64,000 bases of DNA from Candidatus Staskawiczbacteria bacterium RIFCSPHIGHO2_02_FULL_42_22 (GCA_001820175.1 MHOT01000012.1:124-64123); one strand, 5' to 3'; shown: positions 8,343 through 64,000, numbered from the stretch's first letter. A program made the numbers and translations. Notes: generated from the letters alone by a model not told the origin.

Positions 8343-8532
8343 CCGCGGCCCTATGGACATCACATCCAGAAACCGCACTCCAAGTCTTGCCGGATTTGCC
8401 AATCTTGGGCAGTTTTCACAAAAAATTTGTTCGGCGTAGCTACGGCTAGGCCTTACAAATTTTTTGCTCCAAGCCGCCCAATATTGCGAAACCGTCGGCA
8501 ACTTTAGTGCGGTTTCTGGATGTGATGTCCAT
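8343..8532. repeat. family-B MITE-like element (27-bp TIR atggacatcacatccagaaaccgcact), copy 1
   Basis: Perfect terminal inverted repeats. The internal sequence is the reverse complement of copy 32318..32497. Flanked by TA on both sides. Confidence 0.7.
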
Positions 8533-8540
8533 AACAACCC

Positions 8541-8686
8541 TAGATTGCTTCGTCGTCACGCCTGCGGGCGCAACTCCTCGCAATGACGGGGGACACAGAA
8601 TTCGCGTCATTGCGAGGAGCCCGCAGGCGACGAAGCAATCTAACGGTGAACGGAGATTGCTTCGCTGCGGCTCGCAATGACGGATT
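8541..8686. repeat. GC-rich palindromic element (GTCATTGCGAGG...GAAGCAATCT...AGATTGCTTC...CCTCGCAATGAC family), tandem pair
   Basis: Nested inverted repeats read directly: cgtcattgcgaggagcccgcaggcgacgaagcaatctaacggtgaacggagattgcttcgctgcggctcgcaatgacgg. Confidence 0.7.
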
Positions 8687-13525: not shown

Positions 13526-14596
13526 GGTATAAAGGTAGGTAACTTGTTGCTAATTTTTGAAGTAGATATACCACTTAAAGAAATCCTTTCGCCTGCCCTT
13601 TAACAATCCGCGATGTTGTCGGTAAATAATTTTTAATCTTGAAAAATATCCCTCGATCTTGTTCGTGGTTGAAGGAATATTTTTATCTTTTAAATAATGG
13701 AACATGCTCGGCAGAGCGTTTATCAATAAATTTCTGGTTGCTTTAAGATCGCTGAAAACTTTATCCTTTGAAGACAGGAGGTTCACCGATTTTCCGTATT
13801 TCCTTTCCCATTTTTGAAAAGTATTTAAGAATATTTTTTTACCTCTTTCATTTTTAATTTTTGTAACAGATAGCAATATATCTCTTAATTTCTTGCTGGC
13901 CTCCAGCTTTGGATTTCTTCTTAACCATGATAACCCCTGCCGTTGAATGTGTGCCAAACATCTTTGTATGATAATATCTGGCCAGACATCTTTAATGGCC
14001 CTCATTACGCTTGTATTGCCATCTACCGTGATAGCCATGGGCATAATGCCGCAGCTCTTTGACTCTTCAAAAATTGATCTTGCATATTCGTAATTTTCTC
14101 TGATACAATATTTATGATTTACGATTTTACCATTCGAATTGTCTATTAGCACCATTAGACAATTTTCATGTTTGAAATATGTCCCATCAAAAAGTAAATA
14201 TTTTATTTGATGGTAATTTAGAGTTTTTTTATCCGGCGCTTTGTTCATCCAAAAAGATAATATTTGTTTTATCTTCCAAATTCCACGACGGCTAATACTG
14301 ACTAATTGCCTTGCCGAATAACCCTCAACAATCCACAGCTCAAACCATTTTCTTTCGTTAAATTCCTTGTTCTTGCGATTATGAAAAGTGTAGGTGTGCT
14401 TACAAATTTTACATCTATACCTCTGGTAACCGCATGAAGTGCGACCAAATAATTTAACATTCAAAGAACCACACTTTAGACAACTTTTTTTTCATAATAT
14501 TGAACTGATTTGATATTATTCCAGATTTTAATTGTAATTTACTCTCAAATTAGCACGAAATCCGCATTTTTAGCAACAAGTTACCTACCTTTATAC
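13526..14596 (-). mobile_element. IS1595-family-like insertion sequence with 27-bp perfect TIRs and 8-bp target duplication
   Basis: TIR gtataaaggtaggtaacttgttgctaa at 13527-13553, with its reverse complement at 14570-14596. The direct repeat tcattgcg occurs at 13518-13525 and 14597-14604. There is a single transposase ORF. Confidence 0.7.
13550..14464 (-). CDS. transposase (N-terminal zinc ribbon plus DDE domain; IS1595-like)
   Basis: C..C...C..C near the N-terminus (CGYQRYRCKICKH). DDE-region motifs LFDGTYF, ITVDGNTSVMRAIKDVWPD and TNKIEGYFSRLK. Length 304 aa. Confidence 0.7.
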   Translation of the reverse strand: MNVKLFGRTSCGYQRYRCKICKHTYTFHNRKNKEFNERKWFELWIVEGYSARQLVSISRRGIWKIKQILSFWMNKAPDKKTLNYHQIKYLLFDGTYFKHENCLMVLIDNSNGKIVNHKYCIRENYEYARSIFEESKSCGIMPMAITVDGNTSVMRAIKDVWPDIIIQRCLAHIQRQGLSWLRRNPKLEASKKLRDILLSVTKIKNERGKKIFLNTFQKWERKYGKSVNLLSSKDKVFSDLKATRNLLINALPSMFHYLKDKNIPSTTNKIEGYFSRLKIIYRQHRGLLKGRRKDFFKWYIYFKN

Positions 14597-15245: not shown

Positions 15246-15253
15246 AATTAATA

Positions 15254-15410
15254 GACCTGTTGCGTATTAAGGATTTACTGCAAATTGCATATTTCGGCCA
15301 TAAATTTGCTATAATTTTTCGGCGGGCCCTCTAGGCAAGCCGAAAAATTCTATCAAATTTCTGGCTCAAAATCTTCAATTTTCGTAACAATCCTTAATAC
15401 GCAACAGGTC
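15254..15410. repeat. family-C MITE-like element (conserved core ttttcggcgggccctctaggcaagccgaaaaattctatcaaattt, self-complementary termini), copy 1
   Basis: Termini are gacctgttgcgtattaaggatt and aatccttaatacgcaacaggtc. TA on both flanks. Confidence 0.65.
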
Positions 15411-15451
15411 TAATTCTTTAAATGTAACCTCTTGCGCCTCTCCCATATATA

Positions 15452-15550
15452 CTCGTCGTCATTGCGAGCGAGCGGCCGCAGCCGCGAGCGCGGCAATCTC
15501 CTTTTTTTTACGGGGATTGCTTCGGGCCTGCGGGTCCTCGCAATGACGAG
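15452..15550. repeat. GC-rich palindromic element overlapping the 3' end of yidC
   Basis: cgtcgtcattgcgagcgagcggccgcagccgcgagcgcggcaatctcc...ggggattgcttcgggcctgcgggtcctcgcaatgacgag. The yidC stop codon (15508) lies inside the element. Confidence 0.65.
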
Positions 15551-16287
15551 ATAGGGGGAATTACTTTTATATTTTTTGATCTTTTGAGAATAAACCATTG
15601 CTGCGCCATGGAAAATAATCCGCTTACAATCCAATATAGTCCCAGCGCCGATGGTAATTTTATAAGAATAATCACGGTAATAATAGGAAAAAGATATACC
15701 ATTTGTTTTTGCATCATGGATGCAATATCAGGGCCACTTTTTGCCACCCCCTTAATTGTCTTGGGAAGCAGCATTTTTGTTTGAAAAAATTGTACGGCTC
15801 CCGCCAACACTGCAAATATCATATTAGGGTCGCCTAGGTTAATAAGCCCCAGAAACATTGTGTTAATCTGCACGGGGTTTACCACAAATTGATATAAATG
15901 AGAAAGCTCTTCTGGTTTTAATCCATTCCAAAATACCCGATACAGGGCGATAAGAATAGGGAGTTGTATCAAGGCCAAAAAAAGGCCTGAAAACGGGTTT
16001 ATCTTTTCCCTGCGGTATAATTCCAGGGTCTCTTTGGCTTGCTTTTCCTTATCGTCTTTATATTTTTTTTGCAGTTCCCGCAACTGCGGCTGCAATTTTT
16101 GCATAGCCGCCTGAGAGGCAACGGCTTTCACTGAAAGCGGATAGATAATAATCCGAATAATCACTGTAAGAATAATAATAGCGATGCCAAAATCGTGGCC
16201 AGGCACATAATTATAAATAATCACCAGGAAATTAAAGAGGGGAAAGTATAAAAAAAAATCGAAAAAATTTACAATAAATTGGAACAT
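15508..16287 (-). CDS. yidC: membrane protein insertase YidC (short form); last ~18 codons encoded by a GC-rich repeat
   Basis: Multi-TM Oxa1/YidC pattern with conserved loop PQLRELQKKYKDDKEKQAKETLELYRREKINPFSG. The C-terminus ...SLRGPAGPKQSP is read from the repeat. Confidence 0.8.
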   Translation of the reverse strand: MFQFIVNFFDFFLYFPLFNFLVIIYNYVPGHDFGIAIIILTVIIRIIIYPLSVKAVASQAAMQKLQPQLRELQKKYKDDKEKQAKETLELYRREKINPFSGLFLALIQLPILIALYRVFWNGLKPEELSHLYQFVVNPVQINTMFLGLINLGDPNMIFAVLAGAVQFFQTKMLLPKTIKGVAKSGPDIASMMQKQMVYLFPIITVIILIKLPSALGLYWIVSGLFSMAQQWFILKRSKNIKVIPPISSLRGPAGPKQSP

Positions 16288-18689: not shown

Positions 18690-18975
18690 CCCACCGTCAT
18701 TGCGAGGCACACTGAAGCAATCCCCGTACAAAACGACGAGATTGCCACGTCGCTTGCGAGCTCCTTGCAATGAAGACACTGGGTCACTGATCCTATTTTA
18801 CACTTTTTGATTAGGGGGTGTGAGGGGTTACCGCCTCACCACCATCACTACCGTCATTGCGAGGAATCCGCAGATTCCGTGGCAATCCCTCAATAATACG
18901 ACTAGATTGTCCCGATGGTGGAGCCATCGAGGATCCTCGATAGAATCGGGACTGCGGGCCCTCGTAATAACAGTA
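18690..18975. repeat. cluster of GC-rich palindromic elements (3 units)
   Basis: ccgtcattgcgaggcacactgaagcaatcc..., cgtcattgcgaggaatccgcagattccgtggcaatcc... and attgtcccgatggtggagccatcgaggatcctcgat...atcgggact. Confidence 0.65.
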
Positions 18976-22924: not shown

Positions 22925-23215
22925 CAAGCAATCTGTGGGTAACCTCTCACACCCCCAATGTCATTCCCGACGCGCACGATCGGGAATCCAGGGTATCTTG
23001 TTTAGACCTCTTGCAAAATAAGGATTAGCTGAAAATTCCATATTTTGGCTGAAAATTTGCAATAATTTTTCGGCGGGCCTATGGGCAAGCCGAAAAATTC
23101 TATCAAATTTTCATCTAAAAATCTGTAATTTTCGCTCTAATCCTTATTTTACAAGAGGTCTTTTGAAAATCTTCTGGATCTCGCTTCAAAAGCCCGGGAT
23201 GACAACGAGAGGCGT
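22925..23215. repeat. GC-rich element split by a nested family-C element
   Basis: gtcattcccgacgcgcacgatcgggaatccaggg | family-C copy (gacctcttgcaaaataaggatt...aatccttattttacaagaggtc) | aaaatcttctggatctcgcttcaaaagcccgggatgacaacgagaggcg. An uninterrupted version is at 38574..38665. Confidence 0.7.
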
Positions 23216-27994: not shown

Positions 27995-28306
27995 ACTACC
28001 GTCATTGCGAGGAGTCCCGATCGCAATCGTGGACGACGAAGCAATCTCGTCATTTTGTATGGAGATTAGACCTGTCCCTAAATAAGGTTTCGTACGAAAA
28101 TAACAGATTTTGAGCTAGAAATTTGATAGAATTTTTCGGCTTGCCCTCTGGGCCCGCCGAAAAATTATAGCAAATTTGTGGCCAAAAGGTGTTATTTGCA
28201 GTAAAACCTTATTTAGGGACAGGTCTATTACTTCGTCGTTGTGACTCCTCGCAATGACGGGGTGGCCAGATTGCTTCGGGCCTGCTGGCCCTTGCAATGA
28301 CAAAGT
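27995..28306. repeat. GC-rich element with a nested family-C element (copy 3, TA-flanked)
   Basis: ccgtcattgcgaggagtcccgatcgcaatcgtggacgacgaagcaatctcgtcattttgtatggagat-TA-[gacctgtccctaaataaggttt...aaaccttatttagggacaggtc]-TA-ttacttcgtcgttgtgactcctcgcaatgacgg. Confidence 0.65.
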
Positions 28307-31609: not shown

Positions 31610-32254
31610 GTGGAAAAAATAATTACTAAAACCTTTCGTCAAACCCAGGAAGTCGGCCAAAATTTCGCGGATGAAATTCTATCTTCTGATTCTCAAAAAA
31701 CGGCGGTGATTTTGGCGTTGAGGGGTGATTTGGGTGCCGGAAAAACCACGTTTTTGCAGGGCTTTGCAAAAGGCCTGGGAATTATTGAAGTGGTGAATAG
31801 TCCGACGTTTGTTATTATGAAGAAATTCAAAATCGCTGAATTGCGCGGAAATTTACCCTTCGGCCTCGCTCAGGGCGGGCGCGGAAGGGACGCGGAAACG
31901 AAACCGCGCGGCGGCCCCGCGGGGCCGCCCGCCCGCCCGTCATTGCGAGCCGTGCCCAGTGGGGCGCGGCGTGGTCCCGATGAATTTATCAAGATAAATT
32001 CATACGAGGATCCTCGATGGCAAAGCCATCGGGACAATCCAGCGTTTAAATTTTTCTACCACTTCGATTTATATCGCCTCGAAAGCGAAAAGGACTTGGA
32101 GTTTTTGAATTTCCAAGAAATAATTTCAAACCCAAAAAACATCATTGCCATCGAATGGCCGGAAAAAATCGGCAAATTATTGCCTAAAAATAGCATTTCA
32201 ATAATATTCAAACATTTAGAAGAAAATAAAAGAGAGTTGATAATTCATAGATAA
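31610..32254 (+). CDS. tsaE: tRNA threonylcarbamoyladenosine biosynthesis protein TsaE, carrying an in-frame repeat-element insertion
   Basis: Walker A ILALRGDLGAGKTTF; SPTFVIMKKF ... HFDLYRL motifs. About 55 extra codons lie between them (GLAQGGRGRDAETKPRGGPAGPPARPS...). Confidence 0.75.
   Translation: MEKIITKTFRQTQEVGQNFADEILSSDSQKTAVILALRGDLGAGKTTFLQGFAKGLGIIEVVNSPTFVIMKKFKIAELRGNLPFGLAQGGRGRDAETKPRGGPAGPPARPSLRAVPSGARRGPDEFIKINSYEDPRWQSHRDNPAFKFFYHFDLYRLESEKDLEFLNFQEIISNPKNIIAIEWPEKIGKLLPKNSISIIFKHLEENKRELIIHR
31855..32042. repeat. GC-rich palindromic element inserted in frame within tsaE
   Basis: gcccgcccgtcattgcgagccgtgcccagtggggcgcgg ... ggtcccgatg...gaggatcctcgatggcaaagccatcgggacaatcc. 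Same sub-motifs as copies at 18895 and 38755. Confidence 0.65.
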
Positions 32255-32317
32255 TGTTTTATCTATAAGTGTAGTACATTTCATGGGCATTGTTGGAGGG
32301 AGTCAATCATGAGCACT

Positions 32318-32497
32318 ATGGACATCACATCCAGAAACCGCACTTAAGTTGCCGACGGTTTGGCAATCTTGGGCGGCTTGGAGCAAAAAATTTGTGAGGC
32401 CTAGCCGTAGCTACGCCGAACAAATTTTTTGTGAAAACTGCCCAAGATTGGCAAACCCGTCAAGACTTGGAGTGCGGTTTCTGGATGTGATGTCCAT
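32318..32497. repeat. family-B MITE-like element, copy 2 (opposite internal orientation to copy 1)
   Basis: atggacatcacatccagaaaccgcact...agtgcggtttctggatgtgatgtccat; TA flanks. Confidence 0.7.
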
Positions 32498-32698
32498 ATG
32501 TATGACAAGGGTATGGGAAATTTTTTAGGAAATGCAAGAATGCAGAAAGGAGATTCCGTAGAAGATGTGAGAGTAAGATCTGGTTATTCTAGTAGGATAA
32601 CCATAAGTGGGATTGAAGCAGGAAAATATGGAATTTCCGCAAAAAATATAAAAAGAATTGTTGCTGCGTACCGACTAACGCCCGCTGAATTGCAGTAA
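32498..32698 (+). CDS. small XRE-type helix-turn-helix protein (tentative)
   Basis: ITISGIEAGKYGISAKNIKRIVAAYRLTPAEL resembles an HTH_XRE helix-turn-helix. The start codon lies at the edge of the family-B repeat. Confidence 0.3.
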   Translation: MYDKGMGNFLGNARMQKGDSVEDVRVRSGYSSRITISGIEAGKYGISAKNIKRIVAAYRLTPAELQ

Positions 32699-38424: not shown

Positions 38425-38860
38425 ACCCACTACCGTCATTGCGAGGAGCCCCGAACCACAGTGAGGGGCGACGAAGCAATCTAATAACGAATGGAGATTG
38501 CTTCGCTGTGGCTCGCAATGACGAGAGAAAAACCATTATTCGCCAAGCTCTAATTAAAACCCCTCACACCCCCGATGTCATTTACGACGCGCACGATCGG
38601 GAATCCAGGGGAAAATCTTCTGGATCCCGGGTCAAAAGTCCGGGATGACAACGAGAGGCGTGAGGGGCTATTTTTGGTAATTTTGAGTATGGCAAATAAT
38701 CCCCTCAATCAGTCATTGCGAGCCCACAGGCGTGGCAATCTCGCTTCATTGAATCTAACTGGATTGTCCCGATGGTGGAACCATCGAGGATCCTCGATCA
38801 CATCGGGACTTCGGGTTTGCGAACCCTCGCAATGACGATGCGCGTGGGGGATGCCTCGGT
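38425..38860. repeat. cluster of GC-rich palindromic elements (4 units, including an intact copy of the unit split at 22925)
   Basis: ccgtcattgcgaggagccccgaaccacagtgaggggcgacgaagcaatct...; gatgtcatttacgacgcgcacgatcgggaatccagggg...cccgggatgacaacgagaggcg; cagtcattgcgagcccacaggcgtggcaatctc...attgtcccgatggtggaaccatcgaggatcctcgat. Confidence 0.7.
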
Positions 38861-39946: not shown

Positions 39947-40226
39947 CGTCATTACGAGGGGATTGTAATACCTGAAGCAATCTCGCATAATTACATAAAA
40001 CGAGATTGCCGCTCGCTTTGCGAGCAAAGCTCCTCGCAATGACGATGGGGGGGGTGTGAATGGTCACCCCTCAAAGTAACTGCTCACTGAACATGAAAAA
40101 TAAGCCCACTTACCTCTCGTCGTCATTGCGAGGAGCCCCGAGCCGAATCGAGGGGCGACGTGGCAATCTGGTCGTTTTGTACGGGGATTGCTTCGGGCCT
40201 GCGGGCCCTCGCAATGACGAGAGGCG
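39947..40226. repeat. GC-rich palindromic elements (2 units)
   Basis: cgtcattacgaggggattgtaatacctgaagcaatctcgc... and cgtcgtcattgcgaggagccccgagccgaatcgaggggcgacgtggcaatct...ggggattgcttcgggcctgcgggccctcgcaatgacgag. Confidence 0.7.
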
Positions 40227-45917: not shown

Positions 45918-48017
45918 TTACTCATTTTTCAATTTTTCTAATAAATCGCGGATTTTCGCTGCCCGTTCAAAATCCATATTTTTGGCGGCGATTTTCATTT
46001 CTTTTTCCAATAACTTTTTATCCTGCACGGCGTCAAATTCTGAAATAACATCTTCTTTTTTGGAAAACCCCCAATCGCGTACATCTTTGATGATGGCCGT
46101 GGGAGTAATACGATGTTTTTTATTGTATGCTTCCTGAATTTTTCTTCTGCGGTTTATTTCATCAATGGCCGATTTCATGGAACCAGTAATAGAATCGCCA
46201 TACAAAATAACCCTTCCATACTGGTGGCGCGCCGCCCGGCCCATGGTTTGAATTAAGGTGGTTTTATTCCGCAAAAACCCTTCTTTGTCGGCATCTAAAA
46301 TGGCAACCAATGCAACTTCGGGCAAGTCCAACCCTTCTCGCAATAGGTTAATTCCTACGAGAACGTCAAATTTTCCCTGTCGGAAATTTTTTAACACCTC
46401 GGGCCGCTCCATCGTTTTTATTTCTGAATGCAGGTATTGGGCTTTGACGTTTCTTTCTGCCAGGTAATCAGAAATTTCTTCAGCCAGGCGTTTGGTCAAA
46501 GTAATTACCAGCACACGGTGTTTTTTGGCCACCTCTTTTTTAATTTCGGCCAGCAGGTCTTTAATTTGGTTTTCGGTTTTTTTCACTTCTATGGAAGGTT
46601 CGAGTAACCCGGTTGGCCTGATAATTTGTTCAATCACCTCTTTGCCGGATTTTTGAAGTTCGTAATCAGCTGGTGTGGCCGACACATAAATTGACTGTTT
46701 TTCCCGTTCGGTAAATTCCTGGAACCTTAGGGGCCGATTATCAATGGCCGAAGGCAGGCGAAAACCAAAATCGATCAAGGTTTCTTTGCGTATTTTATCT
46801 CCAATGGCCATGGCTTTAATTTGAGGAAGCGAAATGTGGGACTCGTCGATGAAAATTAAAAATCCGTCATTTGTGTTGTCTGAGATTGCCACGTCGCCGC
46901 GCGCCCGCGGGCGCGCGGCTCCTGAGTCGGGAACTCCCGTTACGCGGGAAGTTCTCGCGACTTTGCGCAATGACGAAGAACGGGTGGCATAATTAAAATA
47001 ATCAACCAAAGAAAATGGCGGGGTTCCTGCTTTTCTGAATTCCAATTGGCTGGAATAATTTTCAATGCCCTGGCACCAACCGGTTTCTTTGAGCATTTCC
47101 AGGTCGTAGTTAGTTTTTTGCTCCAAGCGTTGGTATTCCACTAATTTATTTTGTTTTTTTAATTCTTTGAGCCGTTCTTGTAATTCCAGTTTTATATTTT
47201 CAAGGGCAATGGGAAGGGTGTCTTGGGGCGCGGCCCAGAAGGTGGCGGGGTATAGTGTGAAGCTTGAATCTTGTATCTTGAAGCTTGTATTCGGGCCACT
47301 TTGTGAAACGGAAATTTTCTGGATGGTATTACCATTAAATTCTATCCTTAATATTTTTTCTCCGGTCACCAAATATATTTCAACTATTTCTCCGCGCACC
47401 CGAAAGGTGGCCGGTTTAAAATCAATATCATTTCGTTTGTATTGCAGTAAAATAAGGTGGGAAATAAAATCCTTGCGGGTTATTTTTTGATTTGGTTTTA
47501 TATTCCAACTAACTTTTTGGTAGTTTTCCGGCGACCCAATGTTATAAATACAACTTACGGATGCCACCACAATAACATCTTTTCGCTGCAGTACATCTTG
47601 GGCGGCGGAATGTCGCAGGCGGTCAATTTCCTGGTTTATCTTGGCATCTTTTTCTATATAGGTATCGGTCTGGGGAATATATGCTTCTGGTTGGTAGTAA
47701 TCGTAATACGATACAAAATAGTGCACGCCATTGTTGGGAAAAAATTCCTTCATTTCTTGGTAAAGTTGCGCGGCCAGGGTTTTGTTACAAGCTACTATAA
47801 GAGTAGGTTTTTGGTATTTGGAAATGACTTGGGCCATGGTAAAAGTCTTGCCGGATCCGGTAACGCCCAAAAGCACCTGGTGTTTTTTGCCTTTTTTTAA
47901 ATTTTCGGTCAGTTTTTTAATGGCCTGGGGCTGATCGCCCGTGGGGGTGTATTTTGATATTATTTTGAATTCCATGGTAGTATATGTGTAGCGTGAAGCG
48001 CATAGCGCAGAACGCAA
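45918..48017 (-). CDS. uvrB: excinuclease ABC subunit B, carrying an in-frame repeat-element insertion
   Basis: Walker A GVTGSGKTFTMAQVI, helicase motifs, C-terminal UVR domain. There are ~36 extra codons (TRSSSLRKVARTSRVTGVPDSGAARPRARGDVAISD) between PPFSLVDYF and the FIDESH motif. Confidence 0.85.
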   Translation of the reverse strand: MRSALCASRYTYTTMEFKIISKYTPTGDQPQAIKKLTENLKKGKKHQVLLGVTGSGKTFTMAQVISKYQKPTLIVACNKTLAAQLYQEMKEFFPNNGVHYFVSYYDYYQPEAYIPQTDTYIEKDAKINQEIDRLRHSAAQDVLQRKDVIVVASVSCIYNIGSPENYQKVSWNIKPNQKITRKDFISHLILLQYKRNDIDFKPATFRVRGEIVEIYLVTGEKILRIEFNGNTIQKISVSQSGPNTSFKIQDSSFTLYPATFWAAPQDTLPIALENIKLELQERLKELKKQNKLVEYQRLEQKTNYDLEMLKETGWCQGIENYSSQLEFRKAGTPPFSLVDYFNYATRSSSLRKVARTSRVTGVPDSGAARPRARGDVAISDNTNDGFLIFIDESHISLPQIKAMAIGDKIRKETLIDFGFRLPSAIDNRPLRFQEFTEREKQSIYVSATPADYELQKSGKEVIEQIIRPTGLLEPSIEVKKTENQIKDLLAEIKKEVAKKHRVLVITLTKRLAEEISDYLAERNVKAQYLHSEIKTMERPEVLKNFRQGKFDVLVGINLLREGLDLPEVALVAILDADKEGFLRNKTTLIQTMGRAARHQYGRVILYGDSITGSMKSAIDEINRRRKIQEAYNKKHRITPTAIIKDVRDWGFSKKEDVISEFDAVQDKKLLEKEMKIAAKNMDFERAAKIRDLLEKLKNE
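46882..46976. repeat. GC-rich palindromic element inserted in frame within uvrB
   Basis: gagattgccacgtcgccgcgcgcccgcgggcgcgcggctcctgagtcgggaactcccgttacgcgggaagttctcgcgactttgcgcaatgacga. Confidence 0.65.
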
Positions 48018-49042: not shown

Positions 49043-49046
49043 GAGT

Positions 49047-49105
49047 ATGGACATCACATCCAGAAACCGCACTAAGTTGCCGACGGTTTGGAAACTTTAG
49101 TGCAA
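49047..49105. repeat. family-B element remnant (left TIR plus ~30 nt)
   Basis: atggacatcacatccagaaaccgcactaagttgccgacggtttgg, then diverges. Confidence 0.5.
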
Positions 49106-49149
49106 AGCGATAATATTTGTTCTATACAATAAGGGCTTGGTAATGATAT

Positions 49150-49240
49150 CCCCTCCGTGTCATACCCGCGAAAGCGGGGATCCAGACTCTCAAACAAAAA
49201 CGCTAGATTCCCGCTTTCGCGGGAATGACAATGGGGCGGT
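49150..49240. repeat. GC-rich palindromic element, variant subfamily (gtcat.cccgcgaaagcggg)
   Basis: cgtgtcatacccgcgaaagcggggatccagactctcaaacaaaaacgctagattcccgctttcgcgggaatgacaatgg; a near-identical copy is at 57395..57480. Confidence 0.65.
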
Positions 49241-55077: not shown

Positions 55078-55158
55078 CTCGTCATTGCGAGCCGCAGCGA
55101 AGCAATCTCCGTTCATCGCTAGATTGCTTCGTCGCCTGCGGGCTCCTCGCAATGACGG
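55078..55158. repeat. GC-rich palindromic element
   Basis: cctcgtcattgcgagccgcagcgaagcaatctccgttcatcgctagattgcttcgtcgcctgcgggctcctcgcaatgacgg. Confidence 0.7.
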
Positions 55159-56465: not shown

Positions 56466-56497
56466 TAACATGTCCAGTGAGCAGTTACAGAGGCCTT

Positions 56498-56677
56498 ATG
56501 GACATCACATCCAGAAACCGCACTAAAGTCGCCGGCGGTTTGGCAATCTTGGGCGGCTTGGAACAAAAAATATGCGAGGCGTAGCCGAAGCTACGGCGAA
56601 CATATTTTTTGTGAAAACTGCCCAAGATTGCCAAATCCGGCAAGACTTGGAGTGCGGTTTCTGGATGTGATGTCCAT
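56498..56677. repeat. family-B MITE-like element, copy 4
   Basis: Perfect 27-bp TIRs, TA flanks; the flanking host sequence aggcctt/aagggcct is itself palindromic. Confidence 0.7.
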
Positions 56678-56730
56678 AAGGGCCTTTTTTGTTATTTTGT
56701 AGTATAATGAAGCATTAATTATTTTATCTT

Positions 56731-57375: not shown

Positions 57376-57394
57376 TTAAGAGTTTGGCGAATAA

Positions 57395-57480
57395 TACCTC
57401 CTCCGTGTCATTCCCGCGAAAGCGGGAATCCAGATTCTCAAACAAAAACGCTAGATTCCCGCTTTCGCAGGAATGACAAT
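57395..57480. repeat. GC-rich palindromic element, variant subfamily (second copy)
   Basis: ccgtgtcattcccgcgaaagcgggaatccagattctcaaacaaaaacgctagattcccgctttcgcaggaatgacaat. Confidence 0.65.
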
Positions 57481-61169: not shown

Positions 61170-61275
61170 GTGGGTGCGATGCTAATATACTAATTCATGC
61201 TAATTATACTAATACGTCAACGAATACGTTTTTATTCGTATTATTAGTATGCATTCGTATATTGGCATCGCATTT
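61170..61275. repeat. family-D hairpin element, copy 2 (between infC and rpmI)
   Basis: gcgatgctaatatactaattcatgctaat...attagtatgcattcgtatattggcatcgc. Confidence 0.6.
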
Positions 61276-61783
61276 ACTCTTTCGATACAATCATCGTAAA
61301 CCCTTTTATTTCTCGTTTTAATTCCCGTTCTACTTTTAGTGGTATTAATTTATCAGTAGTTTCAAGAAAGAAAATCATTTTTTGTTTTGCCAGCTCGCCC
61401 ATGGCTTTCTCTCTGCCTTTCAGCACCATACTTACCTTTACTTTATCGCCCTCTTTGATAAATTTCTCTGCTTGCTTGGCTTTTGTTTCAATGTCGCCGG
61501 CGGCTATATTAAACCCAATCTGGATTTCTTTTAACTTAGTAATTTTGGTATTTACCTTTATTTTCTTTTCTTTTTTTTGCAGTGAATAGAGATATTTTCC
61601 GTAGTTGGCAATGCGACATACCGGCGGCTGGACTTTTTCGGTTACCTGAATTAAATCCAGTCCTTTGCTTTTTGCCAATTCAATGGCCGCAAAAATATTC
61701 ATCACTCCCAGTTGTTCGCCGGTCTCACTGATGACCCGCACTTCTTTTGCCCGTATGAAATTGTTGATTAATACTTTTTCCAA
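61274..61783 (-). CDS. infC: translation initiation factor IF-3, probable non-ATG start
   Basis: IRAKEVRVISETGEQLGVM...PPVCRIANYGKYLY. The listed ATG start at 61912 would run through a GC-rich repeat. A TTG at 61781-61783 preceded by aaggaaaa fits the usual IF-3 atypical start. The 5' boundary is uncertain. Confidence 0.7.
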   Translation of the reverse strand: MEKVLINNFIRAKEVRVISETGEQLGVMNIFAAIELAKSKGLDLIQVTEKVQPPVCRIANYGKYLYSLQKKEKKIKVNTKITKLKEIQIGFNIAAGDIETKAKQAEKFIKEGDKVKVSMVLKGREKAMGELAKQKMIFFLETTDKLIPLKVERELKREIKGFTMIVSKE

Positions 61784-61790
61784 ATGATTT

Positions 61791-61866
61791 TCCTTGTCAT
61801 TCTCGGGCTTGACCCGAGAATCCAGAGTTATTCTTGCTGGATTCCGGGCTTTGGCGGGAATGACAT
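61791..61866. repeat. GC-rich palindromic element between infC and ssrA
   Basis: ccttgtcattctcgggcttgacccgagaatccagagttattcttgctggattccgggctttggcgggaatgacatgtgg. Confidence 0.6.
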
Positions 61867-61867
61867 G

Positions 61868-62217
61868 TGGTGGAGATGCCGAGATTGAACTCGGGTCCAA
61901 TAATTTTTTCAAAATAATTCTACAAATGTATTCTGTTTTGTTGTTTGGATATCAAATAAGAAACAGACAAAATTTTTAATATCCTAATCCTCTTAATTTC
62001 AATAATTTTCCGAGGAGAAAAATTATCTATCCTAATAATATAACACCCTTGGTCCGCCTATTAGGAGTCGACGGCAAGGATGCAGCACTAAGCGTATGCT
62101 AATGCTGGTTGCTTATTAAATAAATTAGCAATTATGTTTTTTCTGAAAGTTTAGCCAGATTTCAGAATACTGGATTTGCTTATTTTGAAAGGAACTATTG
62201 TCGAAGCTCACATCCCC
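61868..62217 (-). ncRNA. ssrA: tmRNA (SsrA), one-piece, CCA encoded
   Basis: Minus strand reads 5'-GGGGAUGUGAGCUUCGACAAUAG...GGACCCGAGUUCAAUCUCGGCAUCUCCACCA-3'. The 7-bp acceptor stem GGGGAUG/CAUCUCC has a G3-U pair, and there is a T-arm CCGAG-UUCAAUC-CUCGG. Candidate tag frame GCU AAU UUA UUU AAU AAG CAA CCA GCA UUA GCA UAC GCU UAG (ANLFNKQPALAYA). Immediately downstream of smpB. Confidence 0.75.
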
Positions 62218-62218
62218 A

Positions 62219-62722
62219 TTATTTTAACGCTCGTTGAATGTCGCGCTGGACGTCTCGTTTTTTAATTTTCTCTTTTTTATCAAATTTCTTCTTACCGCGA
62301 GCCAGAGCGAATTCGAGTTTTATCCTACCATTTTGCTCGTAAACTTTCAAGGGGATGAGCGAAAAACCGCGCTCGTTCACTTTACCCATAAGGTAATTAA
62401 TTTCTTTTTTATTTAATAGCAACTTGCGTGGTTGTTCAGGATTATAATCGGCTGGCGCATTTTTGGGCTGATAGGGAGGAATTTTAGCGCCGATGAGCAG
62501 TGGTTCGGCGGCGGCCCGAGGGTGGGAATTTCCGCCTGCGAGCGGAAAATTCTCGCGTCCAGCCGGGCCGCCGCCGCGAATCACCACATACGCCCCCGCC
62601 AAATGCATGTGCCCCGTTTTGATGCTTTTTACCTCTTGGCCAATCAAAACCAGCCCGGCTTCATATTTTTCCAGGATTTCGTAGTCAAACGTGGCCTTCT
62701 TATTTTCAGAATAAATTTCCAT
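62219..62722 (-). CDS. smpB: SsrA-binding protein SmpB, carrying an in-frame GC-rich palindromic insertion
   Basis: ATFDYEILEKYEAGLVLIGQEVKSIK...KLLLNKKEINYLMGKVNERGFSLIPLKVY. About 21 extra residues (GPAGRENFPLAGGNSHPRAAAEP) lie between VVIRGG and LLIGAKI. Confidence 0.85.
   Translation of the reverse strand: MEIYSENKKATFDYEILEKYEAGLVLIGQEVKSIKTGHMHLAGAYVVIRGGGPAGRENFPLAGGNSHPRAAAEPLLIGAKIPPYQPKNAPADYNPEQPRKLLLNKKEINYLMGKVNERGFSLIPLKVYEQNGRIKLEFALARGKKKFDKKEKIKKRDVQRDIQRALK
62507..62576. repeat. 70-bp GC-rich perfect-ended palindrome inside smpB (in frame)
   Basis: gcggcggcccgagggtgggaatttccgcctgcgagcggaaaattctcgcgtccagccgggccgccgc. Confidence 0.65.
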
Positions 62723-63921: not shown

Positions 63922-64000
63922 TGTCATTGCGAGCGGCGGCCAGTGGGCCGCCGCGTGGCAATCTCGTCCAATAACAGACCTGTCCCTAAATAAGATTTTA
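63922..64000. repeat. GC-rich element followed by start of another family-C element
   Basis: gtcattgcgagcggcggccagtgggccgccgcgtggcaatctcg, then gacctgtccctaaataag (same terminus as the copy at 28062). Confidence 0.5.

Follow-up and report, generated by a model that had tools for sequence, protein, structure and literature searches.

The closest described systems are short palindromic repeats carried inside bacterial protein genes. RPE-1 (Rickettsia palindromic element 1; Ogata et al. 2000), as summarised in a later source (PMC10969869), is palindromic, lies in frame in many unrelated housekeeping genes and encodes a peptide that was judged compatible with protein fold and function. A second group, the CGTC-tagged repetitive extragenic palindromes (REPs), was defined by Di Nocera, De Gregorio and Rocco in 2013 (PMC3733652), and includes dRS3 of Neisseria as well as RPE-4 and RPE-6 of Rickettsia conorii. 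According to that survey, these are units of 20–40 bp with an unpaired CGTC (or TGTC/CCTC) at one end, a stem of 8–9 bp opening with two A-T pairs, a loop of 4–5 nt, and a short unpaired tail, CCA. They occur in high copy, mostly between genes and mostly as inverted doublets whose tags lie on the outer sides (“HH dimers”), and no dedicated transposase is known for them. In R. conorii, it reports in-frame copies in the uvrB homologue RC0550 (residues 537–545 and 761–769 of an 838-residue protein), in uvrC (RC0864) and in dnaE. Here, we describe an insert of this kind in uvrB of an uncultured Candidatus Staskawiczbacteria bacterium (RIFCSPHIGHO2_02_FULL_42_22; Parcubacteria, candidate phyla radiation). 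The gene lies within a 64,000-nt stretch of DNA (GCA_001820175.1, MHOT01000012.1:124-64123), hereafter the window, and all positions are counted from its first letter.

The repeat family to which the uvrB insert belongs resembles the CGTC REPs in several features. It has the CGTC tag (the uvrB copy begins CGTC|ATTGCG, from 46975 downward), its stem starts with A-T pairs (all modules end in ATTGC...GCAAT), and its copies are dispersed, mostly intergenic and arranged as HH-dimer doublets, the uvrB copy itself being a singleton. It differs in lacking the canonical size and stem-loop: a closing stem of only 5 bp (ATTGC/GCAAT) encloses a GC-rich interior that varies between copies. The tail, CT or CC and often then C (GCAATCTC, GCAATCCC), is similar but not identical to CCA. 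The uvrB copy also departs from the published geometry by its 93 nt and two inner hairpins. The host differs as well, since bacteria of the candidate phyla radiation do not appear in the accessible part of the 2013 survey, and so does the insertion point in uvrB, which coincides with neither of the two sites in RC0550. The peptides reported there for CGTC elements of R. conorii (VIPAKAGI, CHSRESGNP, DTVVKPRYD; PMC3733652) are unlike that of the uvrB insert. As with the RPEs, the insert lies in frame in a conserved gene and leaves the host ORF (open reading frame) intact. Unlike RPE-1, which has about 150 bp and a conserved peptide, it has only its ends in common with its family, carries no conserved peptide and resides in an unrelated host.

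Other mobile or selfish elements offer partial parallels. REPINs and BIMEs (bacterial interspersed mosaic elements) are GTAG-tagged REPs mobilised by RAYT tyrosine transposases. The window family is like them in its inverted doublets forming long hairpins, its lineage-specific expansion and its presumed single-strand hairpin biology, but it carries a CGTC instead of a GTAG tag. No RAYT gene was seen beside any copy in the window, not all ORFs of which were scanned for a tyrosine transposase. Like small non-autonomous repeats with inverted ends (of the miniature inverted-repeat transposable element type), the family may extend or interrupt ORFs in frame; unlike in these, neither a target-site duplication nor long terminal inverted repeats were found for the uvrB copy, whose ends are partly inverted (TCATTGC / GCAATCT). 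The insert has the features of neither an intein nor a self-splicing intron, with its 37 residues and with no Rfam match better than E = 0.96. What is new about the event is the phylum and not its kind, and a clade-wide insertion hotspot is the added finding. In the literature, we found no prior description of the repeat’s sequence, or of REPs in Patescibacteria or candidate-phyla-radiation bacteria.

The uvrB insert

The ORF at 45918–48017 (minus strand) has, as delimited mechanically, 699 codons from a TTG; the ATG at 47975 (MEFKIISKY...) is probably the real start. Judged by its sequence, the ORF is without doubt uvrB. It matches the solved UvrB of Bacillus caldotenax (2fdc) at E = 7e-226, has the full set of Pfam domains (ResIII, UvrB_inter, Helicase_C, UvrB, UVR), and shares 69–80% identity with its nearest database orthologs, which come from genomes of the same group. 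The alignment to 2fdc is split in two blocks (query 16–341 to chain 4–329, query 384–698 to chain 331–656), so that about 41 query residues stand opposite a single residue of 2fdc, immediately ahead of the FLIxxDESH strand, which bears helicase motif II. After the interruption, the native codons DGFLIFIDESH (about 46846–46868, minus strand) resume with this beta-strand and motif II, and align to DDFLIIVDESH of 2fdc. The strand is also present in an AlphaFold model of the protein, at model residues 373–377.

An original prediction, made from the sequence alone, had proposed that about 36 extra codons interrupt uvrB here, and had named an alignment of UvrB orthologs as the test that could overturn this. 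We compared the protein with its 120 best orthologs, counting an insert if it had at least five residues and measuring the spacing from ENYS to DESH. The segment is not native in the solved structures, and 99 of the 120 orthologs have no insert at its position. In these 99 orthologs the spacing is 34–35 residues, versus 72 in the window. With 35 as the reference, the window uvrB has 37 extra codons (111 nt), so that the predicted number, like the predicted peptide, was right to within a codon or two. The insert, SSSLRKVARTSRVTGVPDSGAARPRARGDVAISDNTN (SSSLRK...SDNTN), occupies 46869–46979 on the minus strand and ORF residues 347–383. Its edges are uncertain by one or two codons, and two in-frame reconstructions of the uninterrupted gene, (T-R|D-G) and (T|N-D-G), are equally good. 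An alternative boundary ending ...AATGACG was rejected, as the restored gene would gain a stop codon. The predicted coordinates, 46882–46976, thus capture the repeat core, which we place at 46883–46975 (minus strand), but fall short of the full insert.

The core is a single module of 93 nt, made up of the CGTC tag, the ATTGC...GCAAT closing stem and a CT tail. Folding places two inner hairpins within it, both on the minus strand: hairpin 1 (GTCGCGAGAACTTCCCGCGTAACGGGAGTTCCCGAC, given as in the mRNA) at about 46920–46952, and hairpin 2 (GCCGCGCGCCCGCGGGCGCGCGGC) at about 46891–46914. The latter is a perfect 24-nt GC palindrome that encodes AARPRARG, and its match to its own reverse complement was recovered by BLAST. 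The fold of closing stem plus two hairpins has z = -3.2, as RNA or as DNA, and the ATTGC...GCAAT pairs close the module in both the minimum-free-energy and the centroid structures. The GC content of the insert is 63%, compared to 41% in the rest of uvrB. Four of its six frames are free of stops, and the frame in use is among these. The encoded peptide is arginine-rich, with a net charge of about +5, and its unique tryptic peptides, read from the sequence, include VTGVPDSGAAR and GDVAISDNTNDGFLIFIDESHISLPQIK. Across the whole window, Rfam gave no match at gathering score, and the locally best one at the insert was a chance snoRNA. A terminator scan found none at the insert, and a promoter scan gave there one weak match on the opposite strand, within chance expectation.

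The dispersed repeat family

The uvrB core has an exact CGTCATTGCG at its 5' end and GACGTGGCAATCT (terminal motif GTGGCAATCT) at its 3' end, and both are shared with other copies in the window. CGTCATTGCG occurs there 27 times exactly and 31 times with at most one mismatch, against 2.3 expected. GCAATCY follows within 100 nt downstream in 22 of the 27 exact copies, compared to 3% at random positions, and the 13-mer at the 3' end of the insert occurs three times. When aligned, the copies form one unit, consisting of CGTC, ATTGCGAG, a variable GC-rich interior and GNNGCAATCT. The other modules measure 29–76 nt, and among the about 27 modules that of uvrB is the longest. When the insert was searched by BLAST against the window and every surveyed locus, only the insert itself and its own palindrome were returned. 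This is because family members share only ends of about 10 nt, and membership therefore rests on the end motifs and not on overall similarity. By these end motifs, the insert is one module of the dispersed family; it lies in minus orientation and keeps the frame. In family, orientation and frame, the original prediction was borne out.

Most copies are inverted doublets that lie between genes, with the CGTC tags outside and fold z-scores of -5 to -8. There are at least 11 such doublets, for example at 8605–8682, 15457–15548, 38434–38523, 40121–40219 and 55080–55157, and one copy, at 63922, has the tag variant TGTC. Within long conserved ORFs, copies were found only in uvrB, in tsaE and in the last codons of a YidC-like ORF. 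The density is 0.42 copies per kb in the window and 0.4 per kb in one relative (L002), compared to zero or one copy per locus in most relatives; at the syntenic locus L054, the sole copy of CGTCATTGCG in 22 kb is the one in uvrB. Going by these counts, the family is strongly expanded in the lineage of the window genome.

A second repeat, TGTCATTCCCGCGAAAGCGGGAATCCAG, forms doublets at 49142–49232 and 57390–57480. Its units match the published CGTC-1 geometry (8-bp stem, GAAA loop, CCA tail; PMC3733652), and resemble the dRS3 units of Neisseria and the RPE-6 units of Rickettsia.

Consequences for the UvrB protein

The insert leaves Walker A (GSGKT), DESH and motif VI unbroken. The AlphaFold model of the window UvrB, built with 55 orthologs, agrees with solved structures of UvrB (TM-score about 0.8, normalised to the target). 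It contains four longer stretches with pLDDT below 50, one of which (334–369, equivalent to ORF 348–383) coincides with the insert, give or take one residue, and has the lowest confidence in the whole model. The insert is accordingly predicted by the model to be disordered. The original prediction had expected it in a surface loop near domain 1b/3. The site is not near domain 3 but is the junction at which the chain re-enters the ATPase core, directly adjoining the motif II strand. The linker between ENYS and DESH varies naturally in length, with 31 residues in most bacteria and 35 in the Staskawiczbacteria clade, and in relatives accepts inserts of 5–37 residues. The insert is probably harmless to UvrB.

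Recurrent insertion at one uvrB codon

Extra residues, 5 to 37 in number, are found at the same position in 21 of the 120 orthologs. At the DNA level, we surveyed 50 uvrB loci retrieved by tblastn, including about 41 species-representative loci of the Staskawiczbacteria type, 14 of which carry an insert at the same codon. All 15 DNA-level inserts at the site, the window’s included, are in frame and free of stops. This speaks for read-through of the inserts, and is expected from purifying selection on a translated gene. In a neighbour-joining protein tree the carriers are spread over the branches, mostly next to a sister that has no insert, which corresponds to about 17 separate events.

The inserts are of several types. 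CGTC modules are present in the window, in L054 and in P0003, whose insert is the most similar to the window’s and encodes ARPRARGD at the same site. A CCCGTTAGAAAC...GTTTCTAACGGG hairpin occurs in L001, a “PVKSA...QFDRV” hairpin in L023, P0062 and P0077, and plain GC palindromes in L002 and L005, that of L002 having 28 nt and resembling hairpin 2 of the window. About ten species carry a short non-palindromic motif, TCGACAAGCTCAGGGCAG. All inserts of at least 14 codons are GC-rich hairpins, with z-scores of -2.6 to -5.7. The 14-codon insert of L005 is nearly identical to hairpin 1 of the window, at the same codon but in inverted orientation, as seen from the asymmetric arm lying on opposite sides. 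We therefore rejected a common descent of these two hairpins, and the inversion speaks against simple shared ancestry even where carriers are closely related.

In other species of the clade, further positions in uvrB also hold the same element types, read in the same frame, with secondary clusters near consensus columns 406, 430–446 and 602–615. Several junctions follow Asn-Pro (AAYCC) codons, and there are three possible AAYCC duplications, in L001, L002 and L023, all with other element types than the CGTC module. CCTTCGACAAGCTCAGGGCAGG recurs about 840 nt downstream of the hotspot, in the uvrB of L030, L031, L037 and L049 (columns 602–615). In some species the motif at these columns again follows Asn-Pro (e.g., NPSADSW, NPSAGSG), and this recurrence hints at a sequence preference.

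A loop that tolerates inserts, together with some preference for the target, may account for the hotspot. A stronger version would be that the codon before motif II is a true integration hotspot, to which, together with a few AAYCC sites in uvrB, several GC-rich hairpin families are directed by a shared mechanism. We regard this as rather unlikely; alternatively, inserts may survive there only through the permissiveness of the loop. If targeting were true, uvrB would be a natural trap for studying how transposase-less repeats of the CGTC type move, and it could explain the repeated hits on excision-repair genes in distant phyla.

A different kind of insertion was seen in P0090, a Staskawiczbacteria UvrB of 1191 residues with a 541-residue insert just after Walker A. 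Its Pfam list includes PF14528 and PF14890, which we take to be intein/homing-endonuclease families.

Origin of the insert

Very probably, a single module of the CGTC-tagged REP type landed in the uvrB linker and is most likely translated as a tolerated loop. A hairpin-forming, GC-rich repeat would have multiplied in the AT-rich Staskawiczbacteria genome, and one copy, presumably mobilised, would have landed in the length-variable linker just before the beta-strand with helicase motif II. There, it would be transcribed and translated as a 37-residue, arginine-rich and disordered surface loop that UvrB tolerates. The length, a multiple of three, and the stop-free frame make transcription and translation the most likely outcome. 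Several observations weigh against this explanation. No direct repeat flanks the uvrB copy, and no sharp element boundary can be defined. The copy is also atypical for its family, being a singleton of 93 nt among modules of 29–76 nt and having CGCAAAG instead of the usual CGAGG after the tag. The argument for translation is drawn solely from conservation of the frame. No mobilising enzyme was identified among the window ORFs, not all of which were scanned. A flank-gap-flank scan of JGI metagenome contigs found no empty-site allele, yet the filled-allele control was also unmatched, although its pattern fits the window sequence. The collection therefore lacks the filled allele too, and the scan is uninformative. 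Finally, the inserts of the window and L054 share short flanks beyond the core (TCT..., ...CTCARACAA), and for these two, common descent instead of independent hits could be the explanation.

Common descent can be extended to the whole clade, if a single ancient insertion in its ancestor later decayed in frame and was precisely lost many times, leaving the window copy as an old relic. The window, P0003 and L054 agree in module type, codon, orientation and frame, and share flanks outside the core (an S(T)SSLR start and an AIS+[DN] end). The inserts of 6–16 codons in other species could be remnants, and the L054 copy stands alone in its 22 kb. However, several unrelated sequence types occupy the site (the CGTC module, CCCGTTAGAAAC...GTTTCTAACGGG, PVKSA and TCGACAAGCTCAGGGCAG), the L005 hairpin is oriented opposite to hairpin 1 of the window, and the same element types sit at other uvrB positions in other species. 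To explain the scattered distribution on the tree, at least a dozen exact deletions would moreover be required, every one of them bringing back the 35-residue spacing. We consider a single ancient insertion clearly unlikely. It is even less probable, indeed very improbable, that the insert has been co-opted, either as an arginine-rich loop that alters the handling of DNA or ATP by UvrB, or as mRNA or DNA hairpins that regulate uvrB expression. A peptide of about +5 adjoining the ATPase motif II strand would fit such a role, as would a hotspot occupied in about a third of the species, and published surveys describe intragenic REPs as over-represented in replication and excision-repair genes (PMC3733652). 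Against it, the inserts at the site have no sequence or length in common (5–37 residues), most species have none, the window insert is predicted to be disordered, and no terminator-like or Rfam-like feature is found at it.

Removal of the segment, as an intron-like RNA or a mini-intein, or its origin as an assembly artefact, is largely excluded. The insert is structured and GC-rich, bacteria of the candidate phyla radiation are known for insertions in their rRNA genes, and P0090 presumably carries an intein elsewhere in UvrB. But an intein would be far larger than 37 residues, and the residues on either side are unfit for intein splice junctions. No Rfam family reaches gathering score, the best being the snoRNA expected by chance (E = 0.96). 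An excised RNA needs neither a length in multiples of three nor freedom from stops, yet all 15 inserts have both. The identical UvrB protein is furthermore found on 18 contigs from two data sources (JGI and ENA assemblies), and is thus not a one-off assembly error.

Arrival of a single CGTC-type module in the linker would extend the translated in-frame palindromic repeats, known as “selfish DNA in proteins” from Rickettsia, to the candidate phyla radiation. Small genomes are usually thought to be streamlined, yet at least three core genes (uvrB, tsaE and smpB) bear inserts within 64 kb. Such inserts add to the length of conserved marker proteins and distort them, and they need to be spotted when genomes are annotated or phylogenies are built from alignments. 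With about 17 hits at one codon, uvrB also offers a comparative system for weighing target preference against selective tolerance, and for the hunt for the mobiliser of CGTC repeats.

Other inserts and repeats in the window

The original prediction had also listed tsaE and smpB as carriers of inserts, and a comparison with the syntenic locus L054 agrees. In tsaE (31610–32254, plus strand), about 53 extra residues (about residues 80–142) are a composite of several GC-rich repeat units, a CGTCATTGCG module among them. The same insert holds a GTCCCGATG...CATCGGGAC hairpin that recurs at 18902–18946 and at about 38760. In smpB (62219–62722, minus strand), 16 extra residues (about 51–66) come from the GC palindrome GGCGGCGGCCCG...CGGGCCGCCGCC; the gene directly adjoins the tmRNA gene (61868–62217). 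In the ORF of a YidC-like membrane insertase (15508–16287, minus strand), a repeat module supplies the last 13 or so codons (...ISSLRGPAGPKQSP). The IF-3 ORF (61274–61912) has an N-terminal extension with the repeat peptide “VIPAKA”, which is probably not translated.

An insertion sequence at 13526–14596, with 27-bp inverted ends (GTATAAAGGTAGGTAACTTGTTGCTAA), encodes an IS256/Mutator-like transposase (ORF 13550–14464, minus strand; Pfam PF00872, E = 5e-6). It sits inside a CGTC module, with an 8-bp direct repeat, TCATTGCG, on both sides. Having landed inside the module, the transposase is a guest and not the driver of the family, and the repeat is itself a target for another mobile element. 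It was the only transposase found in the window, not all ORFs having been scanned.

For a small genome, the window is unusually rich in repeats. A repeat of 182 nt with inverted ends TATGGACATCACATCCAGAAACCGCACT occurs at 8352–8533, 32317–32498 and 56497–56678, with a fragment at 49046–49075. Its copies are 92–97% alike, in one or the other orientation, and it looks like a miniature transposable element. A further repeat of about 170 nt (TAGACCTGTTGCGTATTAAGG...TTTTCGGCGGGCC) is present in both orientations, at 15246–15414, 23003–23161 and 28065–28233.

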